Origin: a virus
DNA: 64,000 nucleotides
IMG/VR virus record: IMGVR_UViG_3300035659_000003
Span: 45,911-109,910 of that record
Reading direction: 5' to 3' (one strand)
Positions 13,745-34,616 of this stretch are shown here, one piece after another. The position numbers were made by a program, and so were the translations under genes. Within the stretch, counting starts at the first letter, position 1. Each line of letters opens with the position of its first letter. The notes beneath the pieces are model-generated. The model had not been told where the DNA came from and did not search any database. It saw only the letters and a program-made list of their open reading frames with translations.

Positions 13745-15038
13745 CACCAAGTCCTGTCCAGCTCCACCGGATAGGGATCGCTCGGCTCGTCGTCTAGAAA
13801 CGAATCCTCCGGTGGCTCGCCCGTAGGAAACCCTCCACTCAGGACATAATCTGGGGAAGCGTAAGGGTCGTCGCGGGCCGCGTCGTCGAGGTCGAGTACA
13901 GGCCGATAGGCCCTGAACGGGGCCTTGTTGATGATCCTGACCGTAGTGGGGCTCCCTTGCCGCACTAGGTACTCTAGCGCCTTGCGGATTCCCCGCATCT
14001 CCTCCAGCATCTGCCGTTGCTGCTCGATACACATAGACTAAGCCTCCTCTATCTCTCGTGCCCAAGGTGGCACCTCGGTCAGTGGTTCCAGTTCCGGCAC
14101 GAGGCCGCTGAATTGCTGCAAGACAAGGAACACCTGCAGCAGCACCGGCTGTGCATTGTCATAGGACGTGCGCCCCAGGCTGGAGACAATCATCCAGGCG
14201 TCGTCGAACGTCAAGGCCAGCTCCTGCTTATCGGCGCTAGGGGCAGCCGCCGCACCGTATCCGGCGATCGCCGCTGTGGTGGTGACGCCCTTTGGAAAGG
14301 TCAGGGCCAGGATGATATCTTGCACCTTGCGGAGTAGATAGTGCACCTCCGACTCGTCCTTCCCCAGCACGTGAGGGCCGCTAATGCCGCGCAAGAGTTC
14401 ATGGATGGCCCAGCCGTCAGTCAGGCTCACCCATATCGTCTTCGTATCGGACATTGGGCACCTCCTCCGATAAGGAATCTACCGCTAGCACAATCGTCTC
14501 CTCGAACTCAGGGTGCTCAGCGCGGAGAAACTCCGTAACCGCGCCGCACTTCTTGCAGACGCCATGCTCGTAGAAATAATGACTCCCCATCACCCATGTG
14601 GGCCGATCCATAATGTAGTGATGGACGCAGTTCGAGTCCCCGCCACGGACGTTGACTCGCTGTGAGGCGTGCTTACCCACGCGTCCACCCCGTCGCCGCC
14701 GCCAGACGCTCCTGAGCAGTCGCGTCCGGCAGGGTATTGATCTCGGGATCGGTGCGAGATAGGCCCAGGATGCGGTCGGTGCTCTTCTCCTCGGGGTCGC
14801 CCCGCTGCTCGGCGTGTTCTCGCATCTCCTGCGCCAACGTGTAGGCGGGCCGGATATGGTCGGAGAATGTGTAAACGTCCAGTGCTCCGAACCGGCCTAG
14901 TGGCACACGCACCGTTACGATTTCCCACGCGTGCTCCCCGAAGGCGTAGCGCTCGACGGCGACAACGACGCCGATCGCCCGCAGCGCTCTCCGCTCAGCC
15001 GTGTGAAGGATTTCTGCTAGCTCACCGAGCCTCGTCAT
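13744..15038 (-). other. Four hypothetical CDSs (13744-14034, 14038-14454, 14417-14680, 14673-15038)
   Basis: Coupled minus-strand ORFs with no recognised family. Confidence 0.55.
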
Positions 15039-16009: not shown

Positions 16010-19000
16010 TTATTCTGGGGATTTTTTAGGGTTCTTCCGACGAACAGGCCGGAATGTGGGCCGTGCCTTCCGATAGATCAGGAAGCAGCGGCAGTTAGAC
16101 CGGCAGATCGTGCTGCCGTCTCGGGGTAGGCGGGGCATCCGGTTGGCGGGCCAGGGGCTCTGCGTGGCCATCTCCAGGCACGTAGCACAGTGCTCAGCGC
16201 CAAGGGTCAGCTTCCAGTGGGCCTTCATCTGCGGCAGGTTCTCCGAGACGGTCTGATGATACAGTCCGGCGGAGCCGTCCGCGTAGAGCTTGGCGCGCCA
16301 GATGGCCTGCTTCTCGGTCTTGACCTTGCCCGCCGCCAGATCGTCGCGGAAGCCGTCGAGGTAGTGGTGCTGATGTCTCAACTCGGCCATGAGATTATCC
16401 CGTGCCCGCTGCCGTGCGTCCGGCGTTTCCTTGAGCCGCAGCGTCGAGGCGTAGGCCGACTTGCCATAGAGGTCATCAACCGCCGCGCGCATCTGTGCGT
16501 GCCAGGTATCCACGTCGCCTTCGCCGCGCCACAGGGCACACGTTGCGGTCTCCATTGCCTTCTTCGTGCGCCCGATCTCCATGTTGACGCGCTCAAGCGG
16601 GGAGGGCCACCGGCGCTTGCCTCGCTTGTCCAGCTTAAAGTACACGCGGGAGGGCAGATCGGAGTCCACGGCGGTGCGGGCCTTGTTGATGCCCATCGCT
16701 GCTAGGCGCATCAGCATCTCTGCATGCGCGATTTCCGCCAGGGTAATAGGCGCATTCCGGCTGTCCTGCACGTCCTGAGAACCAGCAACACCCTGGTTCG
16801 TGGTGACGATCCCCGTCGTGACTTCCGGTGCGTTGCCGGTGTGGGCACGAGAATCCATCGGCTCGGTTGGCGCGCCCTTCTCAACCTCCCCACCTACGAA
16901 TATCTGGATGTGCCGCCCGTCCGAGGTGGTCACGAACTTGCGGGGGGCGATCCCCAGCTCCTCACCGAAGTCCTTGTTCAGGGTATCCGCCTCGTCCTCG
17001 ACGGGGTTCCACTCAAGCAGCTCCGCGATAGCGTCGTAAAGCCCCGAGAAGCGCCGCTTAAACTTAGTAGGGCTTATCGTCATGTATGCCACGCACTCGG
17101 CGAACATCTCCGCCGAACTGTCGCGCCCGTAGTGACTCGGGAGACCGCGTGCCGTCTCCTGCGCCGCGTGGAAGGCATCGAGCCAGGTGTCAGAATTAGA
17201 GAAGCGACGCTCCGTGCCATCGTCCATGACATGAGCATACTCGTGGGCGATCACCGCCCGCATGGTGTCATAGGGGCCAGAGGGAAGCTCTCCCCCCATC
17301 GCGCTCCCCCACGACTGGGCGTCGAGGGTCAGGACACTGACCTCCGCCTCATCATATCCGACGTAGGTCATGCCCGCCGCCTTGCCCACGTCGTCTGGAG
17401 ACAGCTCGCCCGCTTCTGCCAGATCTTCCATAGCACGTCTCATATCGTCGCGGGAGTAGGTGTGCCAGACCGCATTAGGTACGCCGTGCGGTGCGGGCAT
17501 CAGCACCAGCACCTCAGCGACGATGGGCTGATCCTGAACGTAGACATCAGCGAAGTCATGCTGCTCGGCGATCTTGAGCGCGGTGAATAGCTCGTGGATT
17601 TTCTTCGGTATTGCCTCCCCGCCATGCCGGTTGATGTCGCGGATATGGCGAATCAGGGCGCTCCGTCGGACGTGGGCACCTCCGTGCTTGCCATGCTTCT
17701 TCTGATCATGCTTGCCTGGAAGGTGCTTCTCGACCCCACTCGCAGGCTGCAACGCGAACACATCATGCGTCTGCTTTGTCCAGTCGGCATTATGCATGTC
17801 CTCGTCCAGCCACACGGCCTCTTGTGCGGCGAGTTCGATATTGTGATGCCGCATATCCTGCTCGAAGCGCTCCTCCCACGCCGGTAGTTCCTGCCCTCCA
17901 GCACGCCGAGCAACGACATCAATTTCCCCGCCGATGACTAGCATCTCATACTCTTCGGCGCAGCCAGGCCCTGTGCGGAACGTCGAAAAGATCTTATCAC
18001 GAGGCACGCGGGCGGCAACCAGCATCTGCTCTTCCTCATGGTGTATAGCAAAGCGCGTTGCAACCGAGTACTCGCTGGCGAAGGACGACAGGGGGTTGAG
18101 CTTAGCACGGGTGCGCGTCGGCTCATCCGCTGGTAGTGCAGATACCCAGTCCGGAATTTTCGCTGCCTCGTCCCATCCCATACCCCGCACCAGCACGACC
18201 TCATCCATCTCCAGCTCTTTGAGAAGGGCCTGCGTGTCCTCATATACAGAGTCCACCCATGCCCGCAGAACCGGCCCGTGCTTGGAGACGATACGGTCAA
18301 TCTCGTCGGAACCATGTTCGACGTAGGCGACCGTAGTGTCCTCCACGCCGAACGCCTCTGATGCAACCCGCTGCAGTGCAACGCTCGGTGCCCGATGATC
18401 AGAACTAGATATGGCCCACGTCTTGGTCAAGTAGTAAGCGACCTTTTCCGACGAGGACAGCTCTACCCCCTTCGCCGGATCGTAGACATCGCGAAAGTGA
18501 GGAGCGAGAGTTCGTGCCGCTGCCCAGAAGGGAGCAGCCTTAGCCATCTTGTCTTCGGCGTCTGCCCACCCTTCGGCGAGAGCCATCGTCAATGTCTGCC
18601 GAACACCCGTCAGCTCATCCCGATTGCCTCCCCGAAACCGATAGTTATCCCCTTCCCGAGAAATCCTTACAGGCGAGCCGACTTTCTCATAGTAGTCATT
18701 CAAGAAGCGAGCCGCTTCATAGGAGAGCTTGTCAAGATTCTCCGACTCCTGCTCAGGCGTTACGCCGAGCTTCCGCTCCATCCCCTTCGCCGTCCGCTCC
18801 ATGATTTCCTGCTTCAGATCAGCGCGGGCGTCATCGTCCCTAACATCGATGCTATTGCCCGCCGTCAGGATACCTACCTGCTCTTCCAGCTTCGCACTGA
18901 AGCTCCTATCCTTTGCCCGCTGGCTGAGCACGCCGTCCACCGAGAATAATGCGTCCCTGATACGCACAGCAGCATTGAAGTTCTCGTAGCCACCCTCCTT

Positions 19001-20974
19001 CTTCGCCCTGCGTATCATCGCTGCAAGCGCCGTGTGAAGGCGATCACGAATGGTCTCGAGCAAGCCGTCGCCGAGGTTGGAAAATTCTGGAATGTCGCCA
19101 CGAGTGACTCTCTCCAGAATCTCCCGATAAAGGTCACGTGCTTCCGAGGGGTCGAGCCAGTCCACCGCCCCCACGCGCCCCGCTGCTGCGTGGCCACGCG
19201 CACGCCCGTGCTTCTTCTGATCATGCTTGCCTGGAAGGTGCTTCTCGATCTTCTTGCTCTCCGGAATGGAGCCGGAGCCAGTCGCGCGCCCAACGTGCGG
19301 GGTCTCCGCGCCGCCCTCGGAACCCTCGTAGCCAGTCTCCTGCCCTTCTTCGGAGGTGCCCTCTTCCGGCGTGATAGGCTTGATTGCCTCGCTAGGGGTT
19401 ACGTCCCCCTCAGCCAGCCGAATAACGTCCCCGCCACGGCTCATCACAACGACCTCGTGCTGGCCCATGCCCTCCAACTCAGGCAGGGCATCCGAGAGCA
19501 GGAACACCTGATCGACGGGCAGCTTCCTGGAGACGACCGATCCGTCGCCGTATCCCTCCGCTCCTGCCCAGTCCTCGGCCACCTTCATACTCAGCGTCCA
19601 CGATTCCAGCGGACGAGGGCGATACTCCTTGCCCGCCACCAAGTCCTCGTGCATCTTCCCCGAAACACCCCTGTGCAGCTTCACTGACTTCAGCCCTGTC
19701 TGTTGCAGTGCCTTCGAGGAGGCAAGGCGTAGAGCCTTCAACACCACGGGGTTCAGTGCATGGTCGACCTTGGGGTTCGCGCCCGCGATGCCGTCGATGT
19801 AGCTATCGGCGTCGTCCGACGGAGCGTCAGGCTTTCGGGATGCCAGGTGCTCCTTGGCGGCCCTGCGCCCCAGCAAGCGGTCAACCAGGAGCGTCCCGCC
19901 ATCCTTGTCCCATTCCCAGAACCACACGAGGGCAGCAGCCTCGGCCTGCTCCTGTGAGACGCCCCAGTCCTTCAGAACACGATTGAACGTCCCTCGGATG
20001 CCGTGCACCCCCCAGTCTTTCTCCCGCCCTGCTTCAGGGTCGGCCTCATAGTAATGCCCGCCACGTGGCCCCTCTTCGACGTGCTCTCCGCCTGGCGGCT
20101 CCTCGCCCTCGCCAATGTAGATGCGCCCTTTCCTGGCTTGCGCCACGTAAGAAGGGATGCCTACGCGTACGCCGACGTTCTTGGGGTGGATGTCCTGATC
20201 CAGATCGTCTAGCTCACTCCACTCCTCGCCGTGCGCTTTCTGAATCGGCCCTTCGCTGGTCTCAACGGCCTCAATCGCCAGGATCGCGTCAGTATTGTAA
20301 ACGTAATAACTGCCGAGGCTCGCCCCGTCAAATCCAGCAGCGACAGTATTGCGCGTATAGGACTGTGCATCCCGCACTCCCGCCAAATCAAAGGCACTAT
20401 CATACTGAGTCAGGAATCGCCCTCTGACCTTGGCCTGCAAGATCACCATGTCTGGCCGCATCTTCCCCGTCATGGGTGCGGTGAACCACATGCGAGCCTT
20501 TCTCGCTGACGGCGCGAACGAGATGGCGTAGTCGTTCCGGTACCGAGGGCGGATATGCTGCAGGTGGAACCCCTCCCTCAATATCGCTTCGGCGCTCGCC
20601 CGCGTCGTCCCGTGATAGAGCGTCTTCGTCTCTAGTGGCACGGGCGCGCCCCGTCGTTCAGGCACGGGCCGCTTTGGGCTAGGCTTGTCAGGCCGTGTCC
20701 ACTTGCGCGCTAGGCCTTCAGACGCCGATTCTGTGGCCCTGTGGGGCGAATCCTGGCCAGTCTGTGGCGAAGGGCGACCCTTCCCGCCTACGTCGTAATA
20801 GCGCCCGCCACGAGGCCCCTCCTCGATATTGACGCCCTTCGGGGGTTGCTCGCCAGGCTGCAGGTAAACGCGACCCTTCGCTACCTCGCGAATGACCTCC
20901 AGATTGGGATCGGGAGCGACTACGAAATCTGTGTTCCCCTGTCGGATTCTTACTCCTTCGCGCCGTCTAGCCAT
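16010..20974 (-). CDS. Polyvalent head protein: 3 ADP-ribosyltransferase-like domains, zincin peptidase, C-terminal MuF-like domain
   Basis: LYHGT..ILREGF (His-type ART); LHRG..ESWT..QHEVVV and LVRG..SSFA..EEYEMLV (R-S-E ARTs); HEYAH..SHYG...EMFAE (lethal-factor-like zincin); W..EHCATC...P...CRSNCRC (MuF/SPP1 gp7-like). Confidence 0.8.
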   Translation of the reverse strand: MARRREGVRIRQGNTDFVVAPDPNLEVIREVAKGRVYLQPGEQPPKGVNIEEGPRGGRYYDVGGKGRPSPQTGQDSPHRATESASEGLARKWTRPDKPSPKRPVPERRGAPVPLETKTLYHGTTRASAEAILREGFHLQHIRPRYRNDYAISFAPSARKARMWFTAPMTGKMRPDMVILQAKVRGRFLTQYDSAFDLAGVRDAQSYTRNTVAAGFDGASLGSYYVYNTDAILAIEAVETSEGPIQKAHGEEWSELDDLDQDIHPKNVGVRVGIPSYVAQARKGRIYIGEGEEPPGGEHVEEGPRGGHYYEADPEAGREKDWGVHGIRGTFNRVLKDWGVSQEQAEAAALVWFWEWDKDGGTLLVDRLLGRRAAKEHLASRKPDAPSDDADSYIDGIAGANPKVDHALNPVVLKALRLASSKALQQTGLKSVKLHRGVSGKMHEDLVAGKEYRPRPLESWTLSMKVAEDWAGAEGYGDGSVVSRKLPVDQVFLLSDALPELEGMGQHEVVVMSRGGDVIRLAEGDVTPSEAIKPITPEEGTSEEGQETGYEGSEGGAETPHVGRATGSGSIPESKKIEKHLPGKHDQKKHGRARGHAAAGRVGAVDWLDPSEARDLYREILERVTRGDIPEFSNLGDGLLETIRDRLHTALAAMIRRAKKEGGYENFNAAVRIRDALFSVDGVLSQRAKDRSFSAKLEEQVGILTAGNSIDVRDDDARADLKQEIMERTAKGMERKLGVTPEQESENLDKLSYEAARFLNDYYEKVGSPVRISREGDNYRFRGGNRDELTGVRQTLTMALAEGWADAEDKMAKAAPFWAAARTLAPHFRDVYDPAKGVELSSSEKVAYYLTKTWAISSSDHRAPSVALQRVASEAFGVEDTTVAYVEHGSDEIDRIVSKHGPVLRAWVDSVYEDTQALLKELEMDEVVLVRGMGWDEAAKIPDWVSALPADEPTRTRAKLNPLSSFASEYSVATRFAIHHEEEQMLVAARVPRDKIFSTFRTGPGCAEEYEMLVIGGEIDVVARRAGGQELPAWEERFEQDMRHHNIELAAQEAVWLDEDMHNADWTKQTHDVFALQPASGVEKHLPGKHDQKKHGKHGGAHVRRSALIRHIRDINRHGGEAIPKKIHELFTALKIAEQHDFADVYVQDQPIVAEVLVLMPAPHGVPNAVWHTYSRDDMRRAMEDLAEAGELSPDDVGKAAGMTYVGYDEAEVSVLTLDAQSWGSAMGGELPSGPYDTMRAVIAHEYAHVMDDGTERRFSNSDTWLDAFHAAQETARGLPSHYGRDSSAEMFAECVAYMTISPTKFKRRFSGLYDAIAELLEWNPVEDEADTLNKDFGEELGIAPRKFVTTSDGRHIQIFVGGEVEKGAPTEPMDSRAHTGNAPEVTTGIVTTNQGVAGSQDVQDSRNAPITLAEIAHAEMLMRLAAMGINKARTAVDSDLPSRVYFKLDKRGKRRWPSPLERVNMEIGRTKKAMETATCALWRGEGDVDTWHAQMRAAVDDLYGKSAYASTLRLKETPDARQRARDNLMAELRHQHHYLDGFRDDLAAGKVKTEKQAIWRAKLYADGSAGLYHQTVSENLPQMKAHWKLTLGAEHCATCLEMATQSPWPANRMPRLPRDGSTICRSNCRCFLIYRKARPTFRPVRRKNPKKSPE
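17690..19248 (-). repeat. Dispersed coding repeat tag C: KHLPGKHDQKKHG (40-bp identical DNA core)
   Basis: Copies at 17690-17728 and 19205-19243. tgcttcttctgatcatgcttgcctggaaggtgcttctcga is identical in both. Confidence 0.95.
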
Positions 20975-23900
20975 TAGTTGCGCTTCCTGGCGCGTCCCCT
21001 GCCAGTCGAGTCTCGAATCGTGAATATCCGATCAGCCCGCGCCGCCGCAGTAGACCTAGTAGCTGTTGATCTAGGCAGTTGCTCCAACCGCTGATCCTTC
21101 AGGAAGAACAAGGCACCGGCTGAAATCCTGGCCTGCCCCGCATCGTCTAGCTTCTGCCATTTCCTGGTAACTGCGCCCACCTTCCCAGGTGAGTCCGCTG
21201 CGCTGTAGTCGCGCCATACGGCAGGCATGTCGGGGTTGCGGTCTACTGTGAAGCGGTCATGCGCCGGAACGTCCCCGCCGCCCCGCGTCGGGTCGTGAGA
21301 GTGCGCGGGATTCTCTTCGGTGTCGTGCTTGGCCAGCAACCTGACCTCGCCGCGTGGGGCCTCTTCGAGTCTGCTCTTGTAGTCTGACAATGCCTCTAGC
21401 CACGCATCCAGCAAGGATTCTGCCGTCCAGTGGGGATCGGGAACCCTCTCGCCCTGCTCCTCCCCCGCGATGCGCAGGCGCACCTGGGGAATGGGTAGAC
21501 CGGACTGATGAAGCGCCACCAGGAACAGCCCGAACTCCTTGGCGCTGGTGCCGAACCAGCTAGGCGCGTCCTCTAGCATCTTGTCGTACGCCTCGTTCGG
21601 CTGGGCTCCGCGCTTGACGTAGCGCTCGTAGATGGCAACCTGCTGCTGCACCTCATCCGTCTCCCACGGCGCGGTCTTGTCAGTGGCCTTTTTCAGCCCG
21701 AATCGCCATACCTTATTCACTTCTGCCAGATACTCCATGACAGCGTATGCCACCCGCATCGCGGGATCATGATCGTCATATATCCCGAACATGATGGGAA
21801 GGAACATCTCGGCCTGGTGACCAAACGATATCATCGTATCGATAGCGATTGCCTGCGAGCGGCGATCCGCGTAGCGATATCGCCTCAAGTCCTGGCGCAC
21901 AATCTCGTCGAACTCTTCGGCCCAAAAATCGGCCTTGCTTTCGGCGGCAGGGTCGTCTGTCCCCACCGCCCATTCTCGCAAGCGGCGAGGAGCAGCTTCG
22001 GCAACGCGCTCTGCGACGCCGAACAACCGATCAACATCGACGTCGCTCGCCTGTCCTCTAGCCAAACGAGCATATTGCTCCAGAAAATCGGACATCGCTT
22101 CGAGTTGCTTGGGGTATTTCGTATTCCTGACCGCGTCCGCCAACTCTGGCACAGCGTCCACTAGCCTGTGCTGCGTCGGATCGTGCGAGTGCCCTGGGTT
22201 CTCCTCAGTCTCGTGCTTGCTGACCTTGCCGCCCTTGACGGGGTGCACCCAGATGATGTCGTCCTTGTTGTCCTTCTCCCACTTCGTGAAGCAAGCGTCA
22301 CAGAACCACGCGATAGCCATGCCCTCGGCCCACTTCACTTCCTTCGTCGGCGGCTTATCGCAGTCCATGCACTTATCGCGCCTGGGGCGCGCCTTACTGG
22401 TCACGCCGATATCCTGCGTAACGGCACCGGACGTAGGCGTCGAATCTCCGATCCCGCCCGCCTTAACCTGCAGCGAGTCGGCCTGTTGAACGTCCTCCAG
22501 CATCTGGATGGCCTGCTCCTCGCCAATGGCCTCCGCCACAGCCTCTACCTTTTCCTTAAGCTCCTCGGCGGAATCCGTGTCCCCGTCCGGCAGGGTCGGC
22601 CAGCGGTCATCCGCCAGCAGGCGCAGGTCTGCGTCTCCGAGTTCTCCTAGCCCCTCCATAATACGCGCGACCAGCTTGACCCGCTCCGGCACCTCGCCCT
22701 TGGCCAGCAGCGCCGCGTCGTCCGCCGGAACCTTACGGGTTGCCAGGCCCAGGGACTCGACCTTCTTGCGGAAGGCGTCTAGCGCGTCGGTGATGGCGTC
22801 CGAGAGGTCAATCCGCTCCTTGCGCGTTAGGTGCCCCAGCGCCCGCAGGCGATCCATTGCGTCCGTGTAGGACTGATGTATCTTGCTCTCCGCGATGTCA
22901 ATCAGCGTCGTCTCGGCCTTGTCGACCTTCCCGCCACAGGTTAGGCAAGACGTCCGGCGGGCGTCGGCGGACTTGGAGAGCACCACCAGTTTCGCATCTT
23001 GGTTTACGCCCAATTCGCAAATGGTTATTTCGTAAAATACTATGCGTGAGATCAGCCAGAAGCACTTCCCGTCCTGGCACGTGTAGTGACGGCTCTCCAG
23101 CGGGGCATCGCCGGAGATGGAGAACGAGGCCAGCTTGCCATCCTCGATGTCCTTGATTACCTGGTCGACGATCGGCGGGCGGTTCGGGTCGGTGCGTATC
23201 TTGATCACGCAGAACAGCCCGATGTCGTCCACCGTGGTCTTGAAGACCTGCCCAGTCTTGGGGTGCGTCCACTGTGGCAGCACCTCGCCCACCTGGACGT
23301 TGCTGTGGAGCAGCATCGCGTTCCGGTATTTCGGCTCGGCCAGGAAGCGCACCAGGTCTTCCCGCATCGCCTCCTTGGTGATCAGGTGGTGCTCCTTGTC
23401 GATCACCTGTGGCGAAGCGTACCCGCCGACGACGTACTCCTTCTCCTCGTCGTCCTCGGCCTTGTAGAGCGTGTGCACCGCGCCATAGGCCATCCGCGTG
23501 CCCTGTGGGACGGCCTTGGTCAGCACCTCGGGGGTGTAAGGTTCACCGTCCGGCGAAAGGGCCGCTTGTAGTGAACACGTGCCGCCCTTGCAGGCCGCGT
23601 TGTATTCCTGGTACTCCGTCCCCTCGCCCGTCTCCGGTGCTACGATTGAGGTGTCCTGCGCCGATGCGGAGTGAGTGTCACCCTGCTTAGCGGTATAATC
23701 TGTGTGCAGTTTGTCGCCGCTGTGTGGACTTTCTGCACGCGTAATGTACCGCGCAGCCTCGAAGCCCTTCTGAAACGCCTCGCCGTGCCATCTCTGCTCG
23801 TGCTTCTCGATCTTGTCGGACGGGTCGGTGATTAGGACGCCGATTACCTTCACGACATGCCCGTAGGCACGCATGTGGGCGGGCGCGGTGGAGCCAGGGC

Positions 23901-26777: not shown

Positions 26778-27299
26778 GGCTACCGTTCCGCTGCCCCGTC
26801 GAACAATGATGCCCCATCGCGCGTCCTCCGTAACGTTGAAGCCCGCATCACGCAGGGCCTGCGTTGCCCGCGACAAAAGCCGCGCGTAGCGCTCGCCGTC
26901 GTAAACGGTCTGATGGAGCTGAAGCTTGTATTCGCCCTCCGCCCACTTCGTTACATACAGACCATCGCGCCGAGTTGCCTTACCAGGTTTCTGCCTAACT
27001 CGATACTTCTCCTGTGGATCGCGCTCGTATTTTGTTGACACAGGCAGCCCTGCCGCCTCCAACGCACTGTGCAGATTTCCACCTGTAGGCTTCGGCGCGG
27101 CCCTAGTGGGGTGGGGGGCCTGCGTCGGGTCGTGGGAGTGTTCGGGGTTCTCCTCGGTGTCGTGCTTCTTGACGCGACGCTTCCCCAAAGGACGATCTAC
27201 GCCGCGCAGGGCGTAGGTGCTGCGGTCGGAATCTGTGCCGTAGTGCGCGAGCTTCTCCGCGCGCTTGGCAATCTCGCTTAGCGACAGTCGGCGGGCCAT
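26118..27299 (-). CDS. Tagged two-cargo protein with C-terminal PD-(D/E)XK nuclease
   Basis: Tag B plus an unknown domain, then tag A plus GEIGEKIA...FPVDV...VVEVKAG (restriction-endonuclease fold). Confidence 0.7.
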   Translation of the reverse strand: MARRLSLSEIAKRAEKLAHYGTDSDRSTYALRGVDRPLGKRRVKKHDTEENPEHSHDPTQAPHPTRAAPKPTGGNLHSALEAAGLPVSTKYERDPQEKYRVRQKPGKATRRDGLYVTKWAEGEYKLQLHQTVYDGERYARLLSRATQALRDAGFNVTEDARWGIIVRRGSGTVAKQFKVYLKPGEKPPQGVHVQEGPRGGLYYESVHDPSAGEPEPQERVFGGKPVALAHKPSKLETGEIGEKIALQLLLDQGFGDARRLSVEEAQNFPVDVMADHHVVEVKAGLVSNGESAQHWRATIGQPGPTEAAWLKAAAPEEKAAWNRVKGKATIERKQQVLMAIGRERGIRLKAKTYGIILNTDTRQADVYVIDGFHERVGWKSELAQHSYVGTVSF

Positions 27300-27310
27300 G
27301 AGTCGGCCCC

Positions 27311-28009
27311 CTAGCAGCAGTGCTTACGTTCGAGACGCTTCTCGATGTGCTCTAGGTCTACGATGACGCCGCGCTTAAGTTGCTTCTCTAGTTTCTGAGC
27401 CACAGCGCGCAACCTTGTGCCGACCTCGTTAATGACGATCCGCTTTTCCTCGTAGGCCACAACGGGCTCCGCGTCGGGCCGTGCCGCTGCCTTCCGGATC
27501 GGGGCGAGGTCGATATCCTCACTCCCGCATCCAGGACAGGAACGTCGGCCTGCCGGAATCTTGCGCCCGCACTCCTGGCACCAGAACTGCTTGTCGATCT
27601 TTGCTTTGTCCATCTTGTTCTCCCGTGCGAGATGATTGTGGGCCGCCCGCAACCAGTCCAGCCCGCCTCGCCTGTCTTCCCTCATAAAGTTCGTCGCCGC
27701 TGCGTGCAGAAGTTGGCGGACTTCCTCCGACACCTTGCCACGCAAGTCATCCCGCCGCTGCAGAATCACGCCTGCCATTCGCTTCGGGCCTATAAGAGCC
27801 ATGTGATCTTCTATCTCAGGCAGGGACAGCCCCTTCATGGGGTTCCGCGCCGCACGCGGCTTCGAGAAGGACTCAGAGGGTGACCGCAGCCCGTGCACGG
27901 CCTCGCCCGCGTGGGTGTGGTGCTTCCGCGCCTCCTCGTGGCAGTAGTCGTGACCGCCGTGACGGTGGTGACCAGGGGGACAAGGCTTATCGACGAGGCG
28001 ATCAGGCAT
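27311..28009 (-). CDS. Small head-region polyprotein with His/Cys motif and Zn ribbon
   Basis: Start MPDRLVDK (overlaps the upstream stop). Contains CPPGHHRHGGHDYCH and CQECG...CPGCG, and several hydrophobic-x-K|A/Q sites. Confidence 0.65.
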   Translation of the reverse strand: MPDRLVDKPCPPGHHRHGGHDYCHEEARKHHTHAGEAVHGLRSPSESFSKPRAARNPMKGLSLPEIEDHMALIGPKRMAGVILQRRDDLRGKVSEEVRQLLHAAATNFMREDRRGGLDWLRAAHNHLARENKMDKAKIDKQFWCQECGRKIPAGRRSCPGCGSEDIDLAPIRKAAARPDAEPVVAYEEKRIVINEVGTRLRAVAQKLEKQLKRGVIVDLEHIEKRLERKHCC

Positions 28010-30743
28010 TCGCTCTCCCGCCACCTGGACGGTTCTGCCGCTCAGTACCCATTCCAGGTGTGCGCCACGCACGCTGTGCCTGTGCCCTGCGCCCAAGCTC
28101 GGCGTTGACAGCCTTCAGACGATCGATATACTCCTGATGTACGTCGGGGGCCAGTTGCCTGGCCCGATCGCCCTTCAGGTAGTTGACCAGCGCGTCGTAG
28201 TGACGCGAGAGCTTCTTATCGTCCATGCGCTGCACGTCTGCGTGGGCCTGATCGCCCGCCTCGGGCTTCGGCTTCACCTTGCTTGCCGCACGCCGCAGGA
28301 TGTCGACGACCACCTTGGTCTGCATTCTCTCCTGCGGAGAGTCATCCTTGCCCGCCATGATACGATCCTTGGCGTGCTGCTCTATCCGAGCGGCTGCTCC
28401 GGCAAGGCGCTTGTAGGCGTCCGCCGGATCGCGGGTATCCTTGAGCCCCTCCTTGAAGTGGGCCAGAACCCGCTCCAACCCGCCAACGCCCAGAGCGCGG
28501 GCCTGCACAACAGCCTCGTCTAGAACGCCGTGGGCGTCCTCCAAGGCACCGGCAGGCTTCATCATTGTCTCCCCTCGGTGCGCGCGCTTCATGGGGTGGC
28601 AGTAGTCATAGGGCTCGTGCTTGTGCCATCCGGCGGGGCAACCGCCGACGGCCTTCTTGATCTCATCAATCGCCTTGTGCGCCTGCTGATAGGTTTCGTG
28701 AGCGCGCGTCCCGTAGGGAGGAACCTCATGGGTGCGGCTGACTGCAGGAGGCACGTCGGGCCTCGGCTTACCTACGTGACGGTGACTCGCAGACGGGGGT
28801 TTTGGCTTCAGTGGCTCTAGGGACAGGCGCTTATCGATCTTCTCAACCTCTTCCGCGATCTTCTGGTAGAGGTGCTTCGGCCCCCACTCCTGGGGATACT
28901 CGTCAGGGTGCTGCTTATCCAAGTGCCGCCGCCTCTTCTCGCGCGCGTCGCGCCGCCGCTCAATGTCGCCGTGAATCTTGTCACGCTGGCTCTGCAGCCG
29001 CTGTGCCGTCCGCGCGCGATCGTGCGTCTCTGCCCTGCGTGCTGCGTAAGACTGTGCGCTGCCATACGGGGAATGAGAATGCTCTGGGTTCAAGTCACTC
29101 ACATGCTTTTCCACACGGCTCAGGATTGTCTCGCAGTCGTCGTGAAGTGCGCCAGTCTCGTGCTTTTTCAAGGGATATGACGACCTCGGCCCAGACACAG
29201 ACTGAGGGCCTGGCCCCAATATCGGGCGCTTCACGCCTTCCGCCTTCTCCTCGTGACTGTGGACGAACGTTCCGCCCTTGTGGTCATGTGCTACTCCGTG
29301 GTGGCGGTGCTCGCGGGCTGTCCGACCGAACTTGGTGATGGGCTCGTACTCGGCCCGCCCGCCGCGCTCAGGCTTCGGATCGAAGATGGCCGTGTGGAGC
29401 CTGCGATTGGCTTCTGCCTCCGACTCGGATTTGCGCGGGTCGTGAGAGTGACTAGGATTCTCCTCGGTCTCGTGCTTTGCCAGCCGCTGCCCGTGCGCCG
29501 TCCCGCGCTGCTGTCGTGGCTTGGTCTGGCCGTGGGGCTTGCGCGAAGGCTTGACGCCCTTGATCTTCGTGCTCCGCCGCGACTTCTTCTTATCCAAGTC
29601 GTGGTGCTCCTGTGCGTGCTCGGAGAGAATCTCCGCAACGGACTGAAGCGTCCTACCGATCATAGTAACGTCCGCGAGTTCGGGGGTAGCCTCATCTGTG
29701 CCGCCACCGTTCTTTTTCACCCGCTTCGGCACGAACTTAGCAGGGCCGACATCGGGGGAGTCAGGAGCAACTGTTCTCCCGAACGCCCTATCCTTGCGCC
29801 GCGTCTCCCTGGCTGCGTCCGCTGGTGTCCAAGGATGTGATCTAATATTGGCGGCTCGCCAGGCCCCAGGGTCTGGGTGCGTCGGTCTAGCCTTCTTAAC
29901 GGGCTGCGGCTTGGCCTGCGGCCCACGAGGGTGCCAGCCCCAGGCAGGCGCATCAGGGCCTAGCTCGTGCTTCTCGAGTGCCCTCAGCGTCCTTGTATCG
30001 TGCCACTCTGCCACACGCGCGACATAAGGACGGTTCTTCTTGTAGTAATCGAGAATCTGCTTCCGCGCGTCCTTCTCGTTCTTGGCCTTCACATTCTTAG
30101 TCGACGTCTGCTGCTCTGGCCCCTTGACGGTATACTCCACGTAGCCAAAGTGCACGCGGTAGGTTTTGAGGTCGTCCTTCTTCTTCCCCTCCGCGCCGCC
30201 GCCCTCCTTTGTCGGGTCGTGAGAGTGCTCGGGATTCTCTTCAGTCTCGTGCTTCTTCATCGGCTTGTTACGCGGATTGAACCGTGAACCTGCCCACCCG
30301 CTCGGAGGCTTGCTCGTGTCACCAGGAGCCCTCCCTGCGTAGCGCTCTTCTGCAGAGGGCTTCTTAGGCAGCTCCCCACGCTTAGGATCAGCAGGGCTCG
30401 GAACAAAATGCTGCTTACCGACCCGCCCAGGCCCCCTAGCGAGCCCTGGGTGTGGCGCGGCCAACTGACGACGCGGTTGCGCGGGGGCAACACCAGAAAA
30501 ACCCTTGCCTTGATAGACCTTGGCCGGAATACCCTGCGGCTGTGGGTTCTGCACCGGCCCCTTCGGGACGGTCGGCTTCTTACCGAAGAGCTTGTTGATT
30601 TCAGTTATCCCCGCCCGAACCGCATCCAGAGCCTTATCCTCCACTTTATGTTTGATCGAGCCACAGTAGGCATCGGGATCGTCCTTGTCGCGGTTGCGCG
30701 ATACGCAGTCATCGAAGTTGGTGTAACCGGCAAACGGCATCAC
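28002..30743 (-). CDS. Basic, His/Pro-rich head-region polyprotein with repeated tags
   Basis: 913 aa. N-terminal PFAGYTNFDDCV..DPDAYCGSI motif, 2 tag B copies plus 1 variant, 1 CPxGxHxH motif, and many hydrophobic-x-K|H/A sites. Confidence 0.7.
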   Translation of the reverse strand: MMPFAGYTNFDDCVSRNRDKDDPDAYCGSIKHKVEDKALDAVRAGITEINKLFGKKPTVPKGPVQNPQPQGIPAKVYQGKGFSGVAPAQPRRQLAAPHPGLARGPGRVGKQHFVPSPADPKRGELPKKPSAEERYAGRAPGDTSKPPSGWAGSRFNPRNKPMKKHETEENPEHSHDPTKEGGGAEGKKKDDLKTYRVHFGYVEYTVKGPEQQTSTKNVKAKNEKDARKQILDYYKKNRPYVARVAEWHDTRTLRALEKHELGPDAPAWGWHPRGPQAKPQPVKKARPTHPDPGAWRAANIRSHPWTPADAARETRRKDRAFGRTVAPDSPDVGPAKFVPKRVKKNGGGTDEATPELADVTMIGRTLQSVAEILSEHAQEHHDLDKKKSRRSTKIKGVKPSRKPHGQTKPRQQRGTAHGQRLAKHETEENPSHSHDPRKSESEAEANRRLHTAIFDPKPERGGRAEYEPITKFGRTAREHRHHGVAHDHKGGTFVHSHEEKAEGVKRPILGPGPQSVSGPRSSYPLKKHETGALHDDCETILSRVEKHVSDLNPEHSHSPYGSAQSYAARRAETHDRARTAQRLQSQRDKIHGDIERRRDAREKRRRHLDKQHPDEYPQEWGPKHLYQKIAEEVEKIDKRLSLEPLKPKPPSASHRHVGKPRPDVPPAVSRTHEVPPYGTRAHETYQQAHKAIDEIKKAVGGCPAGWHKHEPYDYCHPMKRAHRGETMMKPAGALEDAHGVLDEAVVQARALGVGGLERVLAHFKEGLKDTRDPADAYKRLAGAAARIEQHAKDRIMAGKDDSPQERMQTKVVVDILRRAASKVKPKPEAGDQAHADVQRMDDKKLSRHYDALVNYLKGDRARQLAPDVHQEYIDRLKAVNAELGRRAQAQRAWRTPGMGTERQNRPGGGRANA

Positions 30744-30749
30744 TAGCTC

Positions 30750-33290
30750 CTACGGCAGGGCGTGAATCCGTGATGCCCCGCGCCGCCTACCCTCAGCCAT
30801 TGCCTGCCGCTTGGCGTCGGCGTACGAGCCGTGGATGAAGTGAGGCTTAGGGTCGTCGTCATACTGGAATGCCCATCCGCCCGTGCCTCTCGGCTTCTTC
30901 CCGTGGCTCCACTCAAAGCGCTCGGTTGCGACGTGCCTCGGCCCAGCCCCCTTGCCTGCGCGCGGGTCGTGCTCGCTGTGCGGGCTGTTCGGCGTGTCGT
31001 GCTTCTTTACTGGTGCGGTGGGGTCTGTCGGCACGCGCCGAGTCGGGGTGACGCCCCAGTCGCTACCAGATGTCCATACCTTACCGGATGGGCTCGACGC
31101 AGGGGCGGCCCCTGGCTTACGCTTCTCCAGCGCATCTGTTGCCGCGCGTAGCTCAGCCTGAGCCTTAGCGACTTCAGAATTCATCTTTTCGGCTTTTCTC
31201 TCCACGGGCACCTCTCGCGGGTATCCCGCTGCAGGCCGCTTGCCCGTCCACGCCGGACTAGAAGAGGTGTGCTCAATCTGCCCCATACTTCCCATTTGCG
31301 GGTGATAGGCACGAGCATGACTGTGCGTGTCGCCTGTCTCTTGATGCGTGTGCTCGCGTCCCTGGACGCCGTGCGGGTCAGCCAGCGGAGTCTTGCGAGC
31401 CTTGGAGAACGCGGGGCTCATCTGATCGCGCTTATGCATTGACCCACCAGGAAGCGTGTCCTGGGGCGGGGGCTTTGTAACCCCTGCCTTGGGGTCTCTG
31501 AAGTGCCGCTGCAGATCACGCTGTGCGGACGACATCCCACCCACCAGCTTCTTCGGCTTAGGCGCAGGGCCATAAGGTGCCCCGCCGTGCGGGTGAGGGC
31601 CATGCTCCTGTGGAGCGTCGTGCTTGTCTACCTCGGCCTTCTTCGCATTAGCCATTCCACCACGAGCGTGACTGGCCGAGTGGCCGAACTTGCGCTCGTG
31701 CTCACTGTATCCAGAACCATAAGGCCCAGGCGTCCGGCTTTCCGGCGCGCGGGGCTGCGGCGGAGAAATCTTCACCTTCCCGTGCGCGCCGTAATCGTGC
31801 TCGTGGGTCTCCCCACCAGGCCCCATGTGACCGTGCAACCTTCCCTGTCCGCCGCGAGGCCCTCCGTGGGGGGTCTCCTTCTCCAGCGCGGACGTTGCCG
31901 CACGCAGGGTTGCCTGTGCCTTGGCAAACGTAGGGCTCATCTTCGTGACTAGTGGCTGGACTTCGGTATGTGGCGTAAACTTCCGAGATGCGGGATGCTT
32001 TTGCGTCACAGGGTGACCCTCGGACGCCCCCTCGTGGCGATGCTGCCCAGGAGGACTGCCGTGCGTTGTGCGAAGCTTGCTGGGATCATAGGTGTCCTTC
32101 TGCACCTTCGCCTTCTTCGTCGGCGTAGCGGATGGGCGGGTTATTTTATAAGGATGATAATCCGGAGCCGGTACTTCGCTAGTGCCGCGCTGCCTGCGAA
32201 ACGGGCTGCGCGTCGAAGGGGCGTACCCGCCCTGGTGCCTCACCGACATCGTTCCCTGCTCACCTTGGGCCTTCATCGCTGGTTCCGATCGCGTGGGTGT
32301 CGGGGATGGATGGCTCCCAGGGCGCGGCCCAGGGACAGGAGCGACTGTAGACTGGGGCTGTGGAGTTGCGGGCTCGGCCTTCTTCGCAGGAGAGAAGCGT
32401 CCAGGGTAGTCCTGGGGATTCTTCTTGGGGCGAGGCGGGTCTGGCTTGGCACGCGGCCCCGCGCGATTACCGCCACCGCGTCCCGTCAGCCATCGCAAAC
32501 GCTCTGGGGACGAGCGAGGTGCGGGAGCATCCTCGGCCTTGTCCATAAGGTAGCTTGAGGTGCTCTTCTGCCCCGTGCTGGTGGGCTTACGCGGACGGCC
32601 AACCGGCTTGAAGCCGGAGGTCAGCGGCTGCGGATGTGTGTGGCGCTCGCCCTCGGGTGCTCGACTTCTCGATCCGAAGTGCGGGTGCGTCTGTGGACGC
32701 GAGTAGCGCTTCTTGTCCCCATAATGCTTCTCAAGCTCCTCGTCCTCGGCCTTGTTCATGCCCCCTCGGATCGAATGTGGGGCTCTCGTCGCGTAAGAGT
32801 CAGCACTAGTTCCCTTCTTCGACTTAGGCGGCCAGTGCGGAATACCAACTTCCTTGTCCTGGGCCTTCCACATGGCCTCGCGCCGTTTCGGTTCGCGCCG
32901 GACGGTCTTGCCCTTATCCAGGTCGCCTACGGCCCGAACGGACTTCCGCAGCGCAGATAGCGCCTTAGCCAACTCCACCGTATCCGGCAGCTCCTCACCG
33001 TCCTCGGCCTTGCCCACAACTTCCTTCAGGAACAGCTCCAGGGCCTGGTTGAGCTTCGCACCCTTGGCGAGCCCAGGCATCTGAAAGATACCAGCACCCG
33101 TCACGGCGTAGTAGGAACCGCCCTCGCGCCCCCACAACTCGGCATAGTTCGCCCCGTTGTCGGCGGACACGTAATGAACAATTCCGCCCTCGGCACCCTT
33201 GGACAGGTTCGGCCAGCGCGATGCGGTGCTGAGTGTGATGCCCATAGGCTGCACAGCCTTCGCGAGCCGACTCAAAAATGTCTGGATCAT
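30750..33290 (-). CDS. Basic low-complexity head-region polyprotein
   Basis: 846 aa with more than 20 x-x-K|A/H/G/S sites spaced 5-80 aa apart, a duplicated AKAQAxLRAATxALEK, and a C-terminal tag B variant plus HGKKPRGTGGWAF small-protein cargo. Confidence 0.7.
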   Translation of the reverse strand: MIQTFLSRLAKAVQPMGITLSTASRWPNLSKGAEGGIVHYVSADNGANYAELWGREGGSYYAVTGAGIFQMPGLAKGAKLNQALELFLKEVVGKAEDGEELPDTVELAKALSALRKSVRAVGDLDKGKTVRREPKRREAMWKAQDKEVGIPHWPPKSKKGTSADSYATRAPHSIRGGMNKAEDEELEKHYGDKKRYSRPQTHPHFGSRSRAPEGERHTHPQPLTSGFKPVGRPRKPTSTGQKSTSSYLMDKAEDAPAPRSSPERLRWLTGRGGGNRAGPRAKPDPPRPKKNPQDYPGRFSPAKKAEPATPQPQSTVAPVPGPRPGSHPSPTPTRSEPAMKAQGEQGTMSVRHQGGYAPSTRSPFRRQRGTSEVPAPDYHPYKITRPSATPTKKAKVQKDTYDPSKLRTTHGSPPGQHRHEGASEGHPVTQKHPASRKFTPHTEVQPLVTKMSPTFAKAQATLRAATSALEKETPHGGPRGGQGRLHGHMGPGGETHEHDYGAHGKVKISPPQPRAPESRTPGPYGSGYSEHERKFGHSASHARGGMANAKKAEVDKHDAPQEHGPHPHGGAPYGPAPKPKKLVGGMSSAQRDLQRHFRDPKAGVTKPPPQDTLPGGSMHKRDQMSPAFSKARKTPLADPHGVQGREHTHQETGDTHSHARAYHPQMGSMGQIEHTSSSPAWTGKRPAAGYPREVPVERKAEKMNSEVAKAQAELRAATDALEKRKPGAAPASSPSGKVWTSGSDWGVTPTRRVPTDPTAPVKKHDTPNSPHSEHDPRAGKGAGPRHVATERFEWSHGKKPRGTGGWAFQYDDDPKPHFIHGSYADAKRQAMAEGRRRGASRIHALP

Positions 33291-33362: not shown

Positions 33363-34061
33363 CTACGGGTGATCCAGCCTGTAACGATACCACCCAGGAT
33401 CAGCATAAGGGTAGCGATACTTGAGCAGTTCCTTGTTTGCAGCGGTAGGCCGATCAACTTCGTAGCTCTGGTTCATGATCCCGCCCTCGAGATCGCCCAG
33501 ACCCAGACAGTGCCCGACCTCGTGATTGACCAGGCTGCGCCGCTGATACAGAGACATCGCATCCCAGTAGACTGCCACGTTCGGGTTCGTGGTCGCCCTG
33601 GTGTTGATGGTTACGGTGCACACCCCCGCCGTCCACATACGCTCCTTGTCCCAGTGGTACGCGCTCCAGTTAGCCTGCGCCGCCCTGTCAGCACCGAGAT
33701 AGCCCTGCACAATCCATATAGAGACAAGCCAGTACGGAGAGCAGGCGTTCTCGAACTCGATACCAATCTCGGCGAGAGGTTCACGCCAGCCCCCCTGATC
33801 GTCTAGGGCAACGTTTCCACCAGGAGCGGCGTAGCCCGCGCACCACCTGATAGGGCTTTTCTCGATCAGCGCGCGCAGTGGCACCGAAGGACACAGGCCA
33901 GGTGGTGGCGCGCACTTACCATCCCACCCTGTCTCCACAGGGACAATGGCCGGATTCGGCAGCGCAGGGAGAGCTGGCCCGCCGTCAGAGATCGTGATCA
34001 AAGCAAAAGCGGCGATGCTTATCGTCGCTATGGCGATAGCTAAAAGTGCCTTAGTGCGCAT
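33363..34061 (-). CDS. Secreted or membrane-anchored matrixin-like (metzincin) metalloprotease
   Basis: N-terminal hydrophobic segment, HEVGHCLGLGD, and Met-turn IMN. Confidence 0.75.
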   Translation of the reverse strand: MRTKALLAIAIATISIAAFALITISDGGPALPALPNPAIVPVETGWDGKCAPPPGLCPSVPLRALIEKSPIRWCAGYAAPGGNVALDDQGGWREPLAEIGIEFENACSPYWLVSIWIVQGYLGADRAAQANWSAYHWDKERMWTAGVCTVTINTRATTNPNVAVYWDAMSLYQRRSLVNHEVGHCLGLGDLEGGIMNQSYEVDRPTAANKELLKYRYPYADPGWYRYRLDHP

Positions 34062-34616
34062 CTACTGCAGCCTTATCTGCGACCCGAGTCGTCGCTTCAA
34101 ACCAGGAGCCAGCGTCCGTATTACCTCGCGTCGTGCGGGCCGAACATACGGCGTCGCCTTCTGGCGTGGCACGTTGCGCGCATGCGCATGTCGGGAGTGC
34201 GGCTTTACGAAGGTCTTGTTGTCACCGATATCCAGCGGGTTCTTACTGATCCGAAAGTAGCCACGCCGAAGAATGGTGTTTCTGAAGTGCCCGCGCGTCC
34301 AGTTTTGCTTCCACTCCTTGCGGCGGTGCTTAACCGTCCGCAAGTGGCCCTTGACCCTGTGGTAGCGGACGTTCTCGACGTGCGCCCGCATACCGTATTC
34401 CTTGCGCGCGGCGTAAGGAGCTGTGTAAACCAGCGTGAACCCGTTAGGCAACAGCGTCAGCACGCCGCTACGCCGCAGGTGGCCAGTCTTGTAGGGGGCA
34501 AGCTGGGCCGAGCGGTAGTGAATTTGCTTGCCTAATTCATGAAGCAGCGCGACTAGATGCCCCGACATCGCTGCCTGGAGCTTTACACCAATCGGCGCAA
34601 GGGAGCGCCTAGTCAT
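34062..34616 (-). CDS. HK97 gp10-like head-tail/neck protein
   Basis: AQLAPYKTGHLRRSG...YTAPYAARKEYG...PYVRPA. Confidence 0.65.
   Translation of the reverse strand: MTRRSLAPIGVKLQAAMSGHLVALLHELGKQIHYRSAQLAPYKTGHLRRSGVLTLLPNGFTLVYTAPYAARKEYGMRAHVENVRYHRVKGHLRTVKHRRKEWKQNWTRGHFRNTILRRGYFRISKNPLDIGDNKTFVKPHSRHAHARNVPRQKATPYVRPARREVIRTLAPGLKRRLGSQIRLQ

Follow-up and report, generated by a model that had tools for sequence, protein, structure and literature searches.

Tagged cassettes in the head-associated polyproteins of a phage and their possible processing at hydrophobic-x-Lys sites

The proteins that accompany phage DNA decide the first minutes of infection, as anti-defence enzymes, host-takeover ADP-ribosyltransferases (ARTs) or nucleases, and they are hard to recognise by sequence. 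Polyvalent proteins, as presented in the passages considered here of Iyer, Burroughs, Anand, de Souza and Aravind (2017, PMC5512222), are giant multidomain proteins encoded among late/virion genes, in which ARTs, zincin peptidases and nucleases occur together with MuF-type domains. Delivery along with the DNA is assumed for them, and their cutting into functional units has been proposed. We have analysed six consecutive genes, hereafter the array, at positions 16010-33290 of a 64,000-nucleotide stretch (the window), which is the final 64 kb of the 109,910-bp IMG/VR virus record IMGVR_UViG_3300035659_000003. In contrast to the polyvalent proteins treated in those passages, six coupled genes here share the cargo, and each module is led by one of four short tags that follow a Lys; a serine prohead protease lies within the chain, whereas a zincin metallopeptidase (MPTase) was proposed as the processor of polyvalent proteins (PMC5512222). 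The passages of that paper on cleavage, linkers and peptide motifs describe no repeated inter-domain tag, and the terms “peptide motif” and “linker” do not occur in its text.

The array comes closest to polyvalent proteins, to MuF effectors and to the T4 system that targets proteins to the capsid and processes them. MuF polymorphic toxins of temperate phages join a head-associated anchor to a toxin domain that varies (Jamet et al. 2017, PMC5576092), and they resemble the array in the exchange of cargo between relatives. In the account given there, each protein bears a single toxin and mostly has an immunity gene beside it, whereas the array holds many cargos per chain and no obvious immunity genes; term searches of that paper returned no linker motif or cleavage, and a literature search on MuF processing returned nothing relevant. 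The T4 proteins IPI-III and Alt bear a capsid targeting sequence that is removed by the prohead protease gp21 (PMC9026906, PMC9958956). The likeness would lie in a short peptide that addresses cargo to the prohead, in an assemblin-fold protease cutting at hydrophobic-x-P1 and in cargo, including an ART, that is injected with the DNA. In T4, however, individual proteins carry the signal as an N-terminal leader, which is lost by cleavage after Glu. In the array, by contrast, the conserved peptide is on the far side of the presumed cut and the cargo would retain it; repeated sites occur within the chains, Lys takes the P1 position and the tags are of four types.

Ejection and inner-body proteins of phiKZ and SPN3US are also processed by a prohead protease (PMC5694885, PMC7411985, PMC10052503). 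In these giant phages, as we propose for the array, a single protease recognises a simple consensus in numerous proteins of the head interior, and its products remain in the head and pass into the host; the x-x-E sites of the giant phages, however, have no adjoining conserved tag, and toxin-like cassettes are not concatenated. Short conserved peptides at the swap border of variable modules are also found in bacterial toxins, where the pre-toxin motifs VENN (CdiA) and DPxGL (Rhs) mark the borders for swapping toxin modules, the Rhs motif being an autocleavage site as well. These differ from the array in their secretion context, in having one border per protein and in sequences unrelated to the tags. 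The tags of the array resemble a “load and cut” label, so far undescribed, for capsid-carried proteins.

Tagged cassettes in six coupled genes

The six genes are coupled on the minus strand, with gaps of 6-11 bp or overlaps of 1-8 nt: gene 1 (846 amino acids [aa], 30750-33290), gene 2 (913 aa, 28002-30743), gene 3 (232 aa, ATG at 28009, 27311-28009), gene 4 (393 aa, 26118-27299), gene 5 (1714 aa from the ATG at 26118, 20974-26118) and gene 6 (1654 aa, 16010-20974). The lengths of genes 3 and 5 were taken from their likely ATG starts, and once these were used the lengths and spacing matched those of the preliminary description, which had been made from the sequence of this stretch. The four tags are A (KxRVYLxPGExPPxG..EGPRGGxYY), B (H[D/E]TEENPxHSHDP), C (HLPGxHDQxxH, that is H-x4-HDQ-x2-H) and D (a Cys/His knuckle). 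A regular-expression recount agreed with the vocabulary first reported, namely six B tags and two B variants, four A, two C and two D, 16 copies in all. When the window and the entire 109,910-bp genome were searched in six-frame translation, all tags fell inside the six genes and none elsewhere. The claim that tags start at, or just after, a hydrophobic-x-Lys site was likewise borne out: all 16 are preceded by [VILMA]-x-K, one A tag having Ala (ARK) at the first position. The Lys stands directly before B and C, 1-2 residues before A and 1-4 residues before D. A tagged cassette architecture in head-associated polyproteins is real and well supported.

The sites are also enriched as such. The pattern [VILMF]-x-K-[AHGSQ] occurs 57 times in the array versus 24.6 ± 4.5 times in within-protein shuffles (0 of 500 reached 57), and phi-x-K-H, where phi is hydrophobic, occurs 16 times versus 3.2 expected. 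The density of [VILMF]-x-K-[AHGSQ] is 9.8 per 1000 aa in the array versus 3.3 in the other 140 predicted proteins, so that the comparison that the preliminary description had named as a check gave a threefold excess. The six B copies show 52 synonymous versus 21 non-synonymous codon differences, and their 14-codon flanks 13 versus 192 upstream and 15 versus 175 downstream; the copies are not recent DNA repeats, and their flanks are unrelated. Tag A copies, like those of B, differ at many synonymous sites with the amino acids kept; tag C, present twice, has nearly the same DNA in both copies. Since copies differ mainly at synonymous sites, the tag peptide itself is under purifying selection.

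Similar sites stand at the start of several proteins. A leader of 11-13 aa ending in phi-x-K/A (the slash marks the bond after the Lys) is shared by the capsid candidate (MGSSYRNSQLNK/A), the portal (MGIRGNLSEIIRK/A) and gene 1 (MIQTFLSRLAK/A, 33258-33290, minus strand), with just one further case among 146 predicted proteins. Four phi-x-K-[AHGSQ] sites are present in the 253 aa of the scaffold-like protein. Common leaders and scaffold sites of this kind would be expected if a single protease specificity served every head-internal substrate.

All features of the six genes given below lie on the minus strand. The products of gene 1 and most of gene 2 (30750-33290 and 28600-30743) are His/Pro/Lys/Gly-rich low-complexity sequence. 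In gene 1, the N-terminal ~130 aa and the C-terminal ~60 aa look ordinary, and the final 58 aa are identical in L002, one of two syntenic relatives (L001 and L002) returned by a metagenome scan. Its low-complexity middle is His/Pro/Lys-rich and holds 20 [VILMFA]-x-K-[AHGSQ] sites, roughly one per 40 aa, many of them K/AE or K/AQ; if cut, it would give many small basic peptides, reminiscent of the internal peptides of T4. The single tag of gene 1 is a B variant, VKK/HDTPNSPHSEHDP (30963-31010), and the same variant (HDTPRSPHCKHDP) leads the nuclease module in proteins P0008-P0010, L001 and L002. Gene 2, mostly low-complexity with a helical C-terminal part and 97% identity in L001, has two B tags, MKK/HETEENPEHSHDP (30213-30260) and LAK/HETEENPSHSHDP (29436-29483), and a B variant, VEK/HVSDLNPEHSHSP (29067-29114), the matching place of L002 reading K/HQTEVNPAHSHGP. 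Its tag D, CPAGWHKHEPYDYCH (28596-28640), follows IKK/AVGG and is kept in L001 and L002. Gene 3 consists of an 8-aa leader ending in VDK, tag D (CPPGHHRHGGHDYCH, 27938-27982), a helical part and a zinc ribbon, with Zn_Ribbon_1 and HypA matches below cut-off.

Gene 4 begins with a conserved 45-aa leader, followed by tag B (VKK/HDTEENPEHSHDP, 27126-27173), a small alpha/beta cargo, tag A (K/QFKVYLKPGEKPPQGVHVQEGPRGGLYY, 26691-26777) and a nuclease-like module. In gene 5, tag A (K/ARVYLKPGEEPPEGIDVKDGPRGGRYY, 25555-25638), a module with an HExxH motif, a cargo, tag B (VEK/HDTEENPEHSHDP, 24103-24150) and a further cargo precede the protease; a helical scaffold-like part, a zinc ribbon, tag B (VSK/HETEENPGHSHDP, 22177-22224), a cargo, another tag B (LAK/HDTEENPAHSHDP, 21289-21336) and a tail follow it. 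Gene 6 starts with a leader, tag A (K/GRVYLQPGEQPPKGVNIEEGPRGGRYY, 20795-20878), a cargo, a second tag A (K/GRIYIGEGEEPPGGEHVEEGPRGGHYY, 20048-20131), an ART-like cargo and tag C (IEK/HLPGKHDQKKHG, 19205-19249). Its second half comprises a helical and DRAT-like cargo, a second tag C (VEK/HLPGKHDQKKHG, 17690-17734), an HExxH zincin-like cargo and a Cys-rich, MuF-like end.

Cassette exchange and the tags in other phages

The preliminary description had suggested testing whether homologous loci swap cargo at tag boundaries, and this is what we observed: gene 4 orthologs, L001 and L002 differ by whole cassettes edged at Lys. Gene 4 orthologs differ at the RRVKK/ site and occur in three forms, leader/B/cargo/A/nuclease in the window, leader/A/nuclease in P0007 (85% identical) and leader/B'/nuclease in P0008-P0010, B' being the B variant of gene 1; a search for loci related to gene 4 in IMG/VR found none. 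L001 lacks a block of gene 5 (zinc ribbon, VSK/tag B and cargo, 21688-22392) that is bounded by VTSK/A and GLKK/A, and it has one additional cassette (tag B and a cargo of ~85 aa) inserted at the LAK/ tag B at 21289-21336. The first cargo and the second A tag of gene 6 are also missing there. L002 has gene 5 split directly after ...RRKVEK/, before the tag B at 24103-24150, and carries the tag B and cargo cassette of gene 4 at the gene 5 end. After the same upstream cargo (...EK/), tag A and another cargo replace the window's tag C and cargo (19205-19249). Because these gains, losses, moves and splits fall exactly at Lys sites, the exchange unit is a tag with its downstream cargo, having Lys as its left edge. 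The natural swaps of L001 and L002 define this unit without any experiment.

The arrays of both relatives also enclose a beta-helix, tail-fibre-like gene, at L001:9698-11338 (547 aa), between genes 5 and 6, and at L002:6844-9816 (991 aa), within the split gene 5; the window has none.

The idea that the tag system is special to this genome did not hold. Tag C has 141 occurrences in 104 IMG/VR loci, up to seven per locus, and is present in at least 120 bacterial contigs from many phyla, where ~17 were estimated by chance; candidate prophages with the tag lie in genomes of Streptomyces, Nocardia, Alcanivorax, Novosphingobium and Alicycliphilus. Tag A is present in 39 IMG/VR loci, over which its consensus widens to K-x-[RK]-[VI]-Y-[LIV]...P-x-G-x5-GPRGG-x-YY. 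Tag B, in contrast, is confined to this small clade and has no HDQ. The protein P0040 (KHPGSHDQSVHDP) bridges tags B and C, and a further dialect, K/GPPGPPPRPGLEW.E.THRW, has three copies in a 2071-aa protein. A literature search with the tag strings found no paper naming them.

Other short motifs stand directly before cargo modules in P0014, P0021, P0023, P0024, P0011, P0013, P0015, P0070 and P0119. These motifs (GGPGSGNxGHxGRPGExGGS, NPxHDxxGRF and the K/GPPGPPPRPGLEW.E.THRW dialect) look like further tag families. Two ~100-kb distant relatives, L058 and L063 (IMGVR_UViG_3300049911_000129 and IMGVR_UViG_3300032053_000017), whose protease is 63% identical, use tags A and C and not B.

The tag-C proteins carry a varied load. 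In a Pfam census of 87 of them we counted Phage_Mu_F (11), ADPrib_exo_Tox (10), DUF3626 (8), portal families (6), Zeta_toxin (5), ART-PolyVal (3), Peptidase_S78 (2) and Peptidase_M90 (1), together with one or two matches each to HNH, GNAT, PNKP, kinase-like, topoisomerase IB, NUDIX and Tpt1. Tag C is followed by G and a Gly/Arg-rich linker. The residue before it, in 128 unique contexts, is K (82), R (15), Y (13), A (6), E (5), F (4), N (1) or P (1), and it is uniform within almost every phage (KKKKKKK, YYY, RRR, AA, EE). Such uniformity would be expected if the residue fits a phage-specific S1 pocket. The E class, L-x-E/H, has the shape of the T4 gp21 site, and the A class, L-V-A/H, that of the herpes assemblin site. 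The canonical S78 protease (PF04586) was detected in 8/8 records of the R class, 2/4 of the A class, 5/24 of the K class and 0/14 of the Y, F and E classes (7/42 for all non-R). This distribution supports a link between protease and P1, but most of the records are fragments, and the R phages may be one lineage.

The embedded protease and the weighing of the readings

The preliminary description had placed a prohead-protease domain in the array, and this was supported by fold, by a PHROG family match and by conserved catalytic residues. The domain spans aa 880-1075 of gene 5 (22945-23532), with His955 (LLHSN) and Ser1017 (SFSISG), and it matches the head maturation protease family phrog_23555 at an expect value (E) of 1.1e-10. 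Its score against PF04586 (Peptidase_S78) is 20.3 bits versus a cut-off of 21 (E 6.5e-4); a whole-genome scan listed no match. There are 782 homologs at E<=1e-3, many within proteins of 1000-2000 aa. An AlphaFold model of gene 5 aa 540-1731, built on an 82-sequence alignment in which His955 and Ser1017 are near-invariant (at least 90% conserved), gave a mean predicted local distance difference test (pLDDT) of 59.8, with 88-98 in the protease. Foldseek matched the protease to T4 gp21 (5jbl, probability 1.0, target TM-score 0.61) and also to the proteases of Epstein-Barr virus, human cytomegalovirus and Kaposi's sarcoma-associated herpesvirus, with E of 2.5e-3 or weaker. It is well supported by these data that gene 5 embeds a serine protease of assemblin/T4 gp21 fold with an intact catalytic pair. 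The helical segment after it resembles the scaffold parts fused to many prohead proteases, as far as the model can tell. Assemblin-fold proteases cut at hydrophobic-x-P1 sites, (L/I)-x-E for T4 gp21 and V/L-x-A for herpesviruses, and HK97 gp5 is cut after Lys103.

In L001 and L002, an intein of ~283 aa with an HNH endonuclease (C...HN/S; approximately L001:6900-7750 and L002:10340-11190) sits exactly after the catalytic His (LLH/SN). The window copy (~23305, His955 codon) is intein-free, and P0177 carries PF14890 (intein). The catalytic residue of an essential enzyme is a typical intein site.

The models also bear on where the tags lie, since their placement inside folded domains had been named as evidence against the reading. 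All four modelled B tags, one in gene 4 and three in gene 5, are in linkers with pLDDT <50 (for gene 4 within the stretch aa 13-74; for gene 5 in the low-pLDDT stretch q96-162 for the tag at 24103-24150 and at q764-802 for that at 22177-22224). The gene 5 sites VTSK/A, GLKK/A, LSK/S and VDK/A likewise lie in low-confidence linkers between confident domains. Tag A, in contrast, is predicted in the gene 4 model (mean pLDDT 51.6) as a small beta-hairpin with pLDDT 54-62, not as a loose linker. The proposed protease-flanking site LYK/AEDD had to be given up: the HTLYK that immediately precedes AEDD forms a strand within the protease fold and is therefore not to be counted as a linker site, and the pattern phi-phi-x-K-[SA] ~9 residues before GYAS is conserved family-wide, stand-alone proteases included.

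Based on these data, we propose that the six genes encode polyvalent, capsid-associated polyproteins whose cassettes would each consist of a hydrophobic-x-Lys site, a tag, usually a Gly/Pro-rich linker and a cargo. The chains would also hold head-assembly parts, namely the protease and helical scaffold-like segment of gene 5 and the Cys-rich MuF-like end of gene 6. The polyproteins would be co-assembled into the prohead, where the embedded protease would cut after Lys, with a hydrophobic P3 and Lys at P1 as in the site architecture of the assemblin fold. Cargo modules would in this way be separated, each with its tag at the new N-terminus, and would act as early effectors after a later ejection together with the DNA. 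We give slightly better than even chances to this most likely reading, a polyvalent capsid-cargo system with processing at hydrophobic-x-Lys sites. Cleavage after Lys by the embedded protease, which comparative and structural evidence suggests, would be the most economical mechanism and is held with about the same modest confidence. Packaging, Lys cleavage, the protease responsible and the role of the tag after cleavage are what we infer. Of the payload reading first put forward, cassettes, Lys-edged swaps, linkers, site enrichment and protease stood, whereas the LYK/AEDD site, the linker character of tag A and the MuF assignment did not.

Several points weigh against this reading. It is on the P' side that the long conserved stretch is found, an unusual arrangement for a mere protease site, and HTLYK, being part of the protease fold, shows that not every phi-x-K is a cut site. 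Indels at repeated tags could partly come from repeat recombination. Both AlphaFold models are low in mean confidence, and the last domain of gene 6 has no match to the Pfam MuF model. Non-structural genes separate the array from the portal and from the capsid gene. Only the R class, possibly a single clade, shows a clear link between protease and P1, and most K-type phage records, largely fragments, have no detectable S78 or gene-5-type protease. Used as a query, the gene 5 protease matched only the two relatives behind L058 and L063, and a hidden Markov model of its domain found, among the loci, L058 and, weakly, L062 only.

We have then weighed other explanations of the same data. The tags could be docking or structural motifs (metal-binding His clusters, or a hairpin that binds scaffold, portal, capsid interior or DNA) on chains that stay uncut like beads on a string. 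In favour of this, His, Cys and Asp abound in tags B, C and D as they do in metal sites, the model folds tag A into a hairpin, conservation is found downstream of the Lys and not upstream, and some plasmid polyvalent proteins are transferred full length according to the passages considered of PMC5512222. We nevertheless regard docking without cleavage as unlikely: relatives split or fuse genes exactly at Lys, N-terminal tags still carry a preceding leader ending in phi-x-K, the protease is embedded in the same chain, and a residue before tag C that varies between phages and is uniform within them fits a protease pocket better. Cutting might also be the work of the zincin-like HExxH domains of genes 5 and 6, or of a 232-aa metallopeptidase-like protein encoded just upstream (33363-34061), with the serine protease reserved for capsid maturation. 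The two HExxH modules, the Matrixin-like match of that upstream protein and the MPTase autoprocessing hypothesis in the passages considered of Iyer et al. (PMC5512222) are compatible with such a scheme. It is made improbable, however, by the rarity of zincin families in the 87 tag-C proteins (Peptidase_M90 in one), where MuF, portal and S78 recur, by the phi-x-P1 site shape, which is that of assemblin-fold proteases, and by zincin matches that here all fall below Pfam cut-offs.

A third possibility is that the tags serve mainly as recombination joints, that is micro-homologies for cargo shuffling whose peptides are merely tolerated linkers. That every indel or swap seen has tags or K sites at its edges, and that tag C has almost identical DNA in its two copies, would fit this. 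The B and A copies, however, differ at many synonymous sites with the amino acids kept, the tag C peptide is conserved over more than 100 unrelated phages and many bacterial phyla, and 39 nt of homology in which 25% of codons differ make a poor substrate for recombination; we consider this explanation quite improbable. The array might even be cut by a stand-alone ClpP-like protease (12548-13210), which matches PF00574 at E 1.7e-15 and several PHROG head-maturation-protease families. We give this very little credence, as PF00574 matches none of 50 tag-C phage records and the gene adjoins nucleotide-metabolism genes. Two further candidates were rejected, namely 2A-like ribosome skipping at EENP of tag B, which has no G-P and works on eukaryotic ribosomes only, and acid-labile or autocatalytic Asp-Pro cleavage at HDP of tag B, since tags A and C have no D-P.

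Beyond processing at hydrophobic-x-Lys sites in this phage, the tag survey allows a broader and more tentative proposal, which we consider possible though short of probable. Many tailed phages might share a modular “address-and-cut” code for cargo, in which the site before the tag is matched to the phage's own head protease (K, R, Y, A, E or F at P1) and several tag families are in use (HLPGxHDQxxH, the GPRGGxYY hairpin and the clade-specific HETEENPxHSHDP). The tag would stay on the cargo and set its capsid position, metal/DNA binding or ejection order. If this were true, the sequence alone would suffice to predict which effectors a virion delivers, and an added cassette could bring foreign proteins into the capsid. 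If the tags mark such cargo, they would offer a simple handle for injected effectors in thousands of uncultured phages and prophages, and how polyvalent proteins are loaded and taken apart would become testable. They also suggest a practical route for loading chosen proteins into phage capsids.

Cargo modules and genome setting

Several unrelated effector-type domains are found per polypeptide, as in polyvalent proteins, and most of their Pfam matches are weak; the cargo identities of the preliminary description (ART, zincin, nuclease) are weakly supported. A DRAT-like ADP-ribosyltransferase module in gene 6 (17915-18262) matches PF07357 (E 3.1e-6, 27 bits on the whole protein) and has homologs in tag-C loci. 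The two zincin-like modules stay below Pfam cut-offs: HETCH in gene 5 (25162-25176) has no Pfam family above cut-off, and HEYAH in gene 6 (17231-17245) has weak M90 and lethal-factor-like matches. Gene 5 holds, besides this HExxH module, the protease and the zinc ribbon, a high-confidence domain (pLDDT 95-98) without known family.

The nuclease-like cargo of gene 4 (26121-26657; D..EVK motif, pLDDT 70-85) belongs to a well-populated homolog family. Foldseek returned no significant match for the gene 4 model, and the resemblance to PD-(D/E)xK nucleases is weak (best E 0.08). In other phages its homologs are fused to portal, MuF, DUF2213, InPase or zincin domains, and the short motifs before the module there are GGPGSGNxGHxGRPGExGGS, NPxHDxxGRF and HPGxRGGKxYY. 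This distribution shows the module to be mobile cargo.

The Cys-rich C-terminal domain of gene 6 (CATC...NCRC, 16067-16588) matches phrog_24776, of unknown function, at E 2.8e-15. Its assignment to MuF could not be maintained: PF04233 (Phage_Mu_F) had no match at E<=10 in the genome and none in Pfam scans of the array proteins, and a BLASTP comparison of the gene 6 end with a PF04233 protein was not significant. What MuF likeness it has consists of the CxxC...NCRC motif and an ESM Atlas lead (4 of the 30 nearest clusters). A tblastn search with gene 6 matched only an 11-12% piece, in Bacillus phages, and no close cultured phage was found.

The ends of the record are direct terminal repeats, and the phage genome looks complete; the minus strand carries every predicted gene. 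The array lies, like polyvalent proteins, among virion genes, with a Neck1-like neighbour, a portal and the embedded protease. The Neck1/minor-capsid-like gene (34062-34652) is just upstream of the array, next to the metallopeptidase-like gene, whose Matrixin-like match is below the Pfam cut-off. The portal gene is at 41082-42872 (minus strand; phrog_18178, E 4e-48). The head module is not contiguous, since non-structural genes for RusA, an exonuclease and a kinase-like protein intervene between portal and array. About 20 kb downstream of the array are a candidate major capsid gene (L108:14090-15508, minus strand) and an acidic scaffold-like gene (L108:15530-16288).

The ClpP-like protease gene (12548-13210) stands beside a dATP/dGTP diphosphohydrolase-like gene (13349-14065; PF18909, E 8e-28) and an NT5C-like nucleotidase gene (11290-12207). 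The diphosphohydrolase-like gene raised the idea of Z-genome (2-aminoadenine) chemistry, which is unlikely because no match to a PurZ-type adenylosuccinate synthetase was found in the genome. A stand-alone PI3/PI4-kinase-like protein is encoded at 38035-38760 (PF00454, E 4.6e-8), and PF00454 also occurs twice among the cargo of IMG/VR tag-C proteins. A tail-fibre-like protein with collagen repeats (G-x-y) is encoded at 39850-40701 and contains three near-identical 30-aa repeats.

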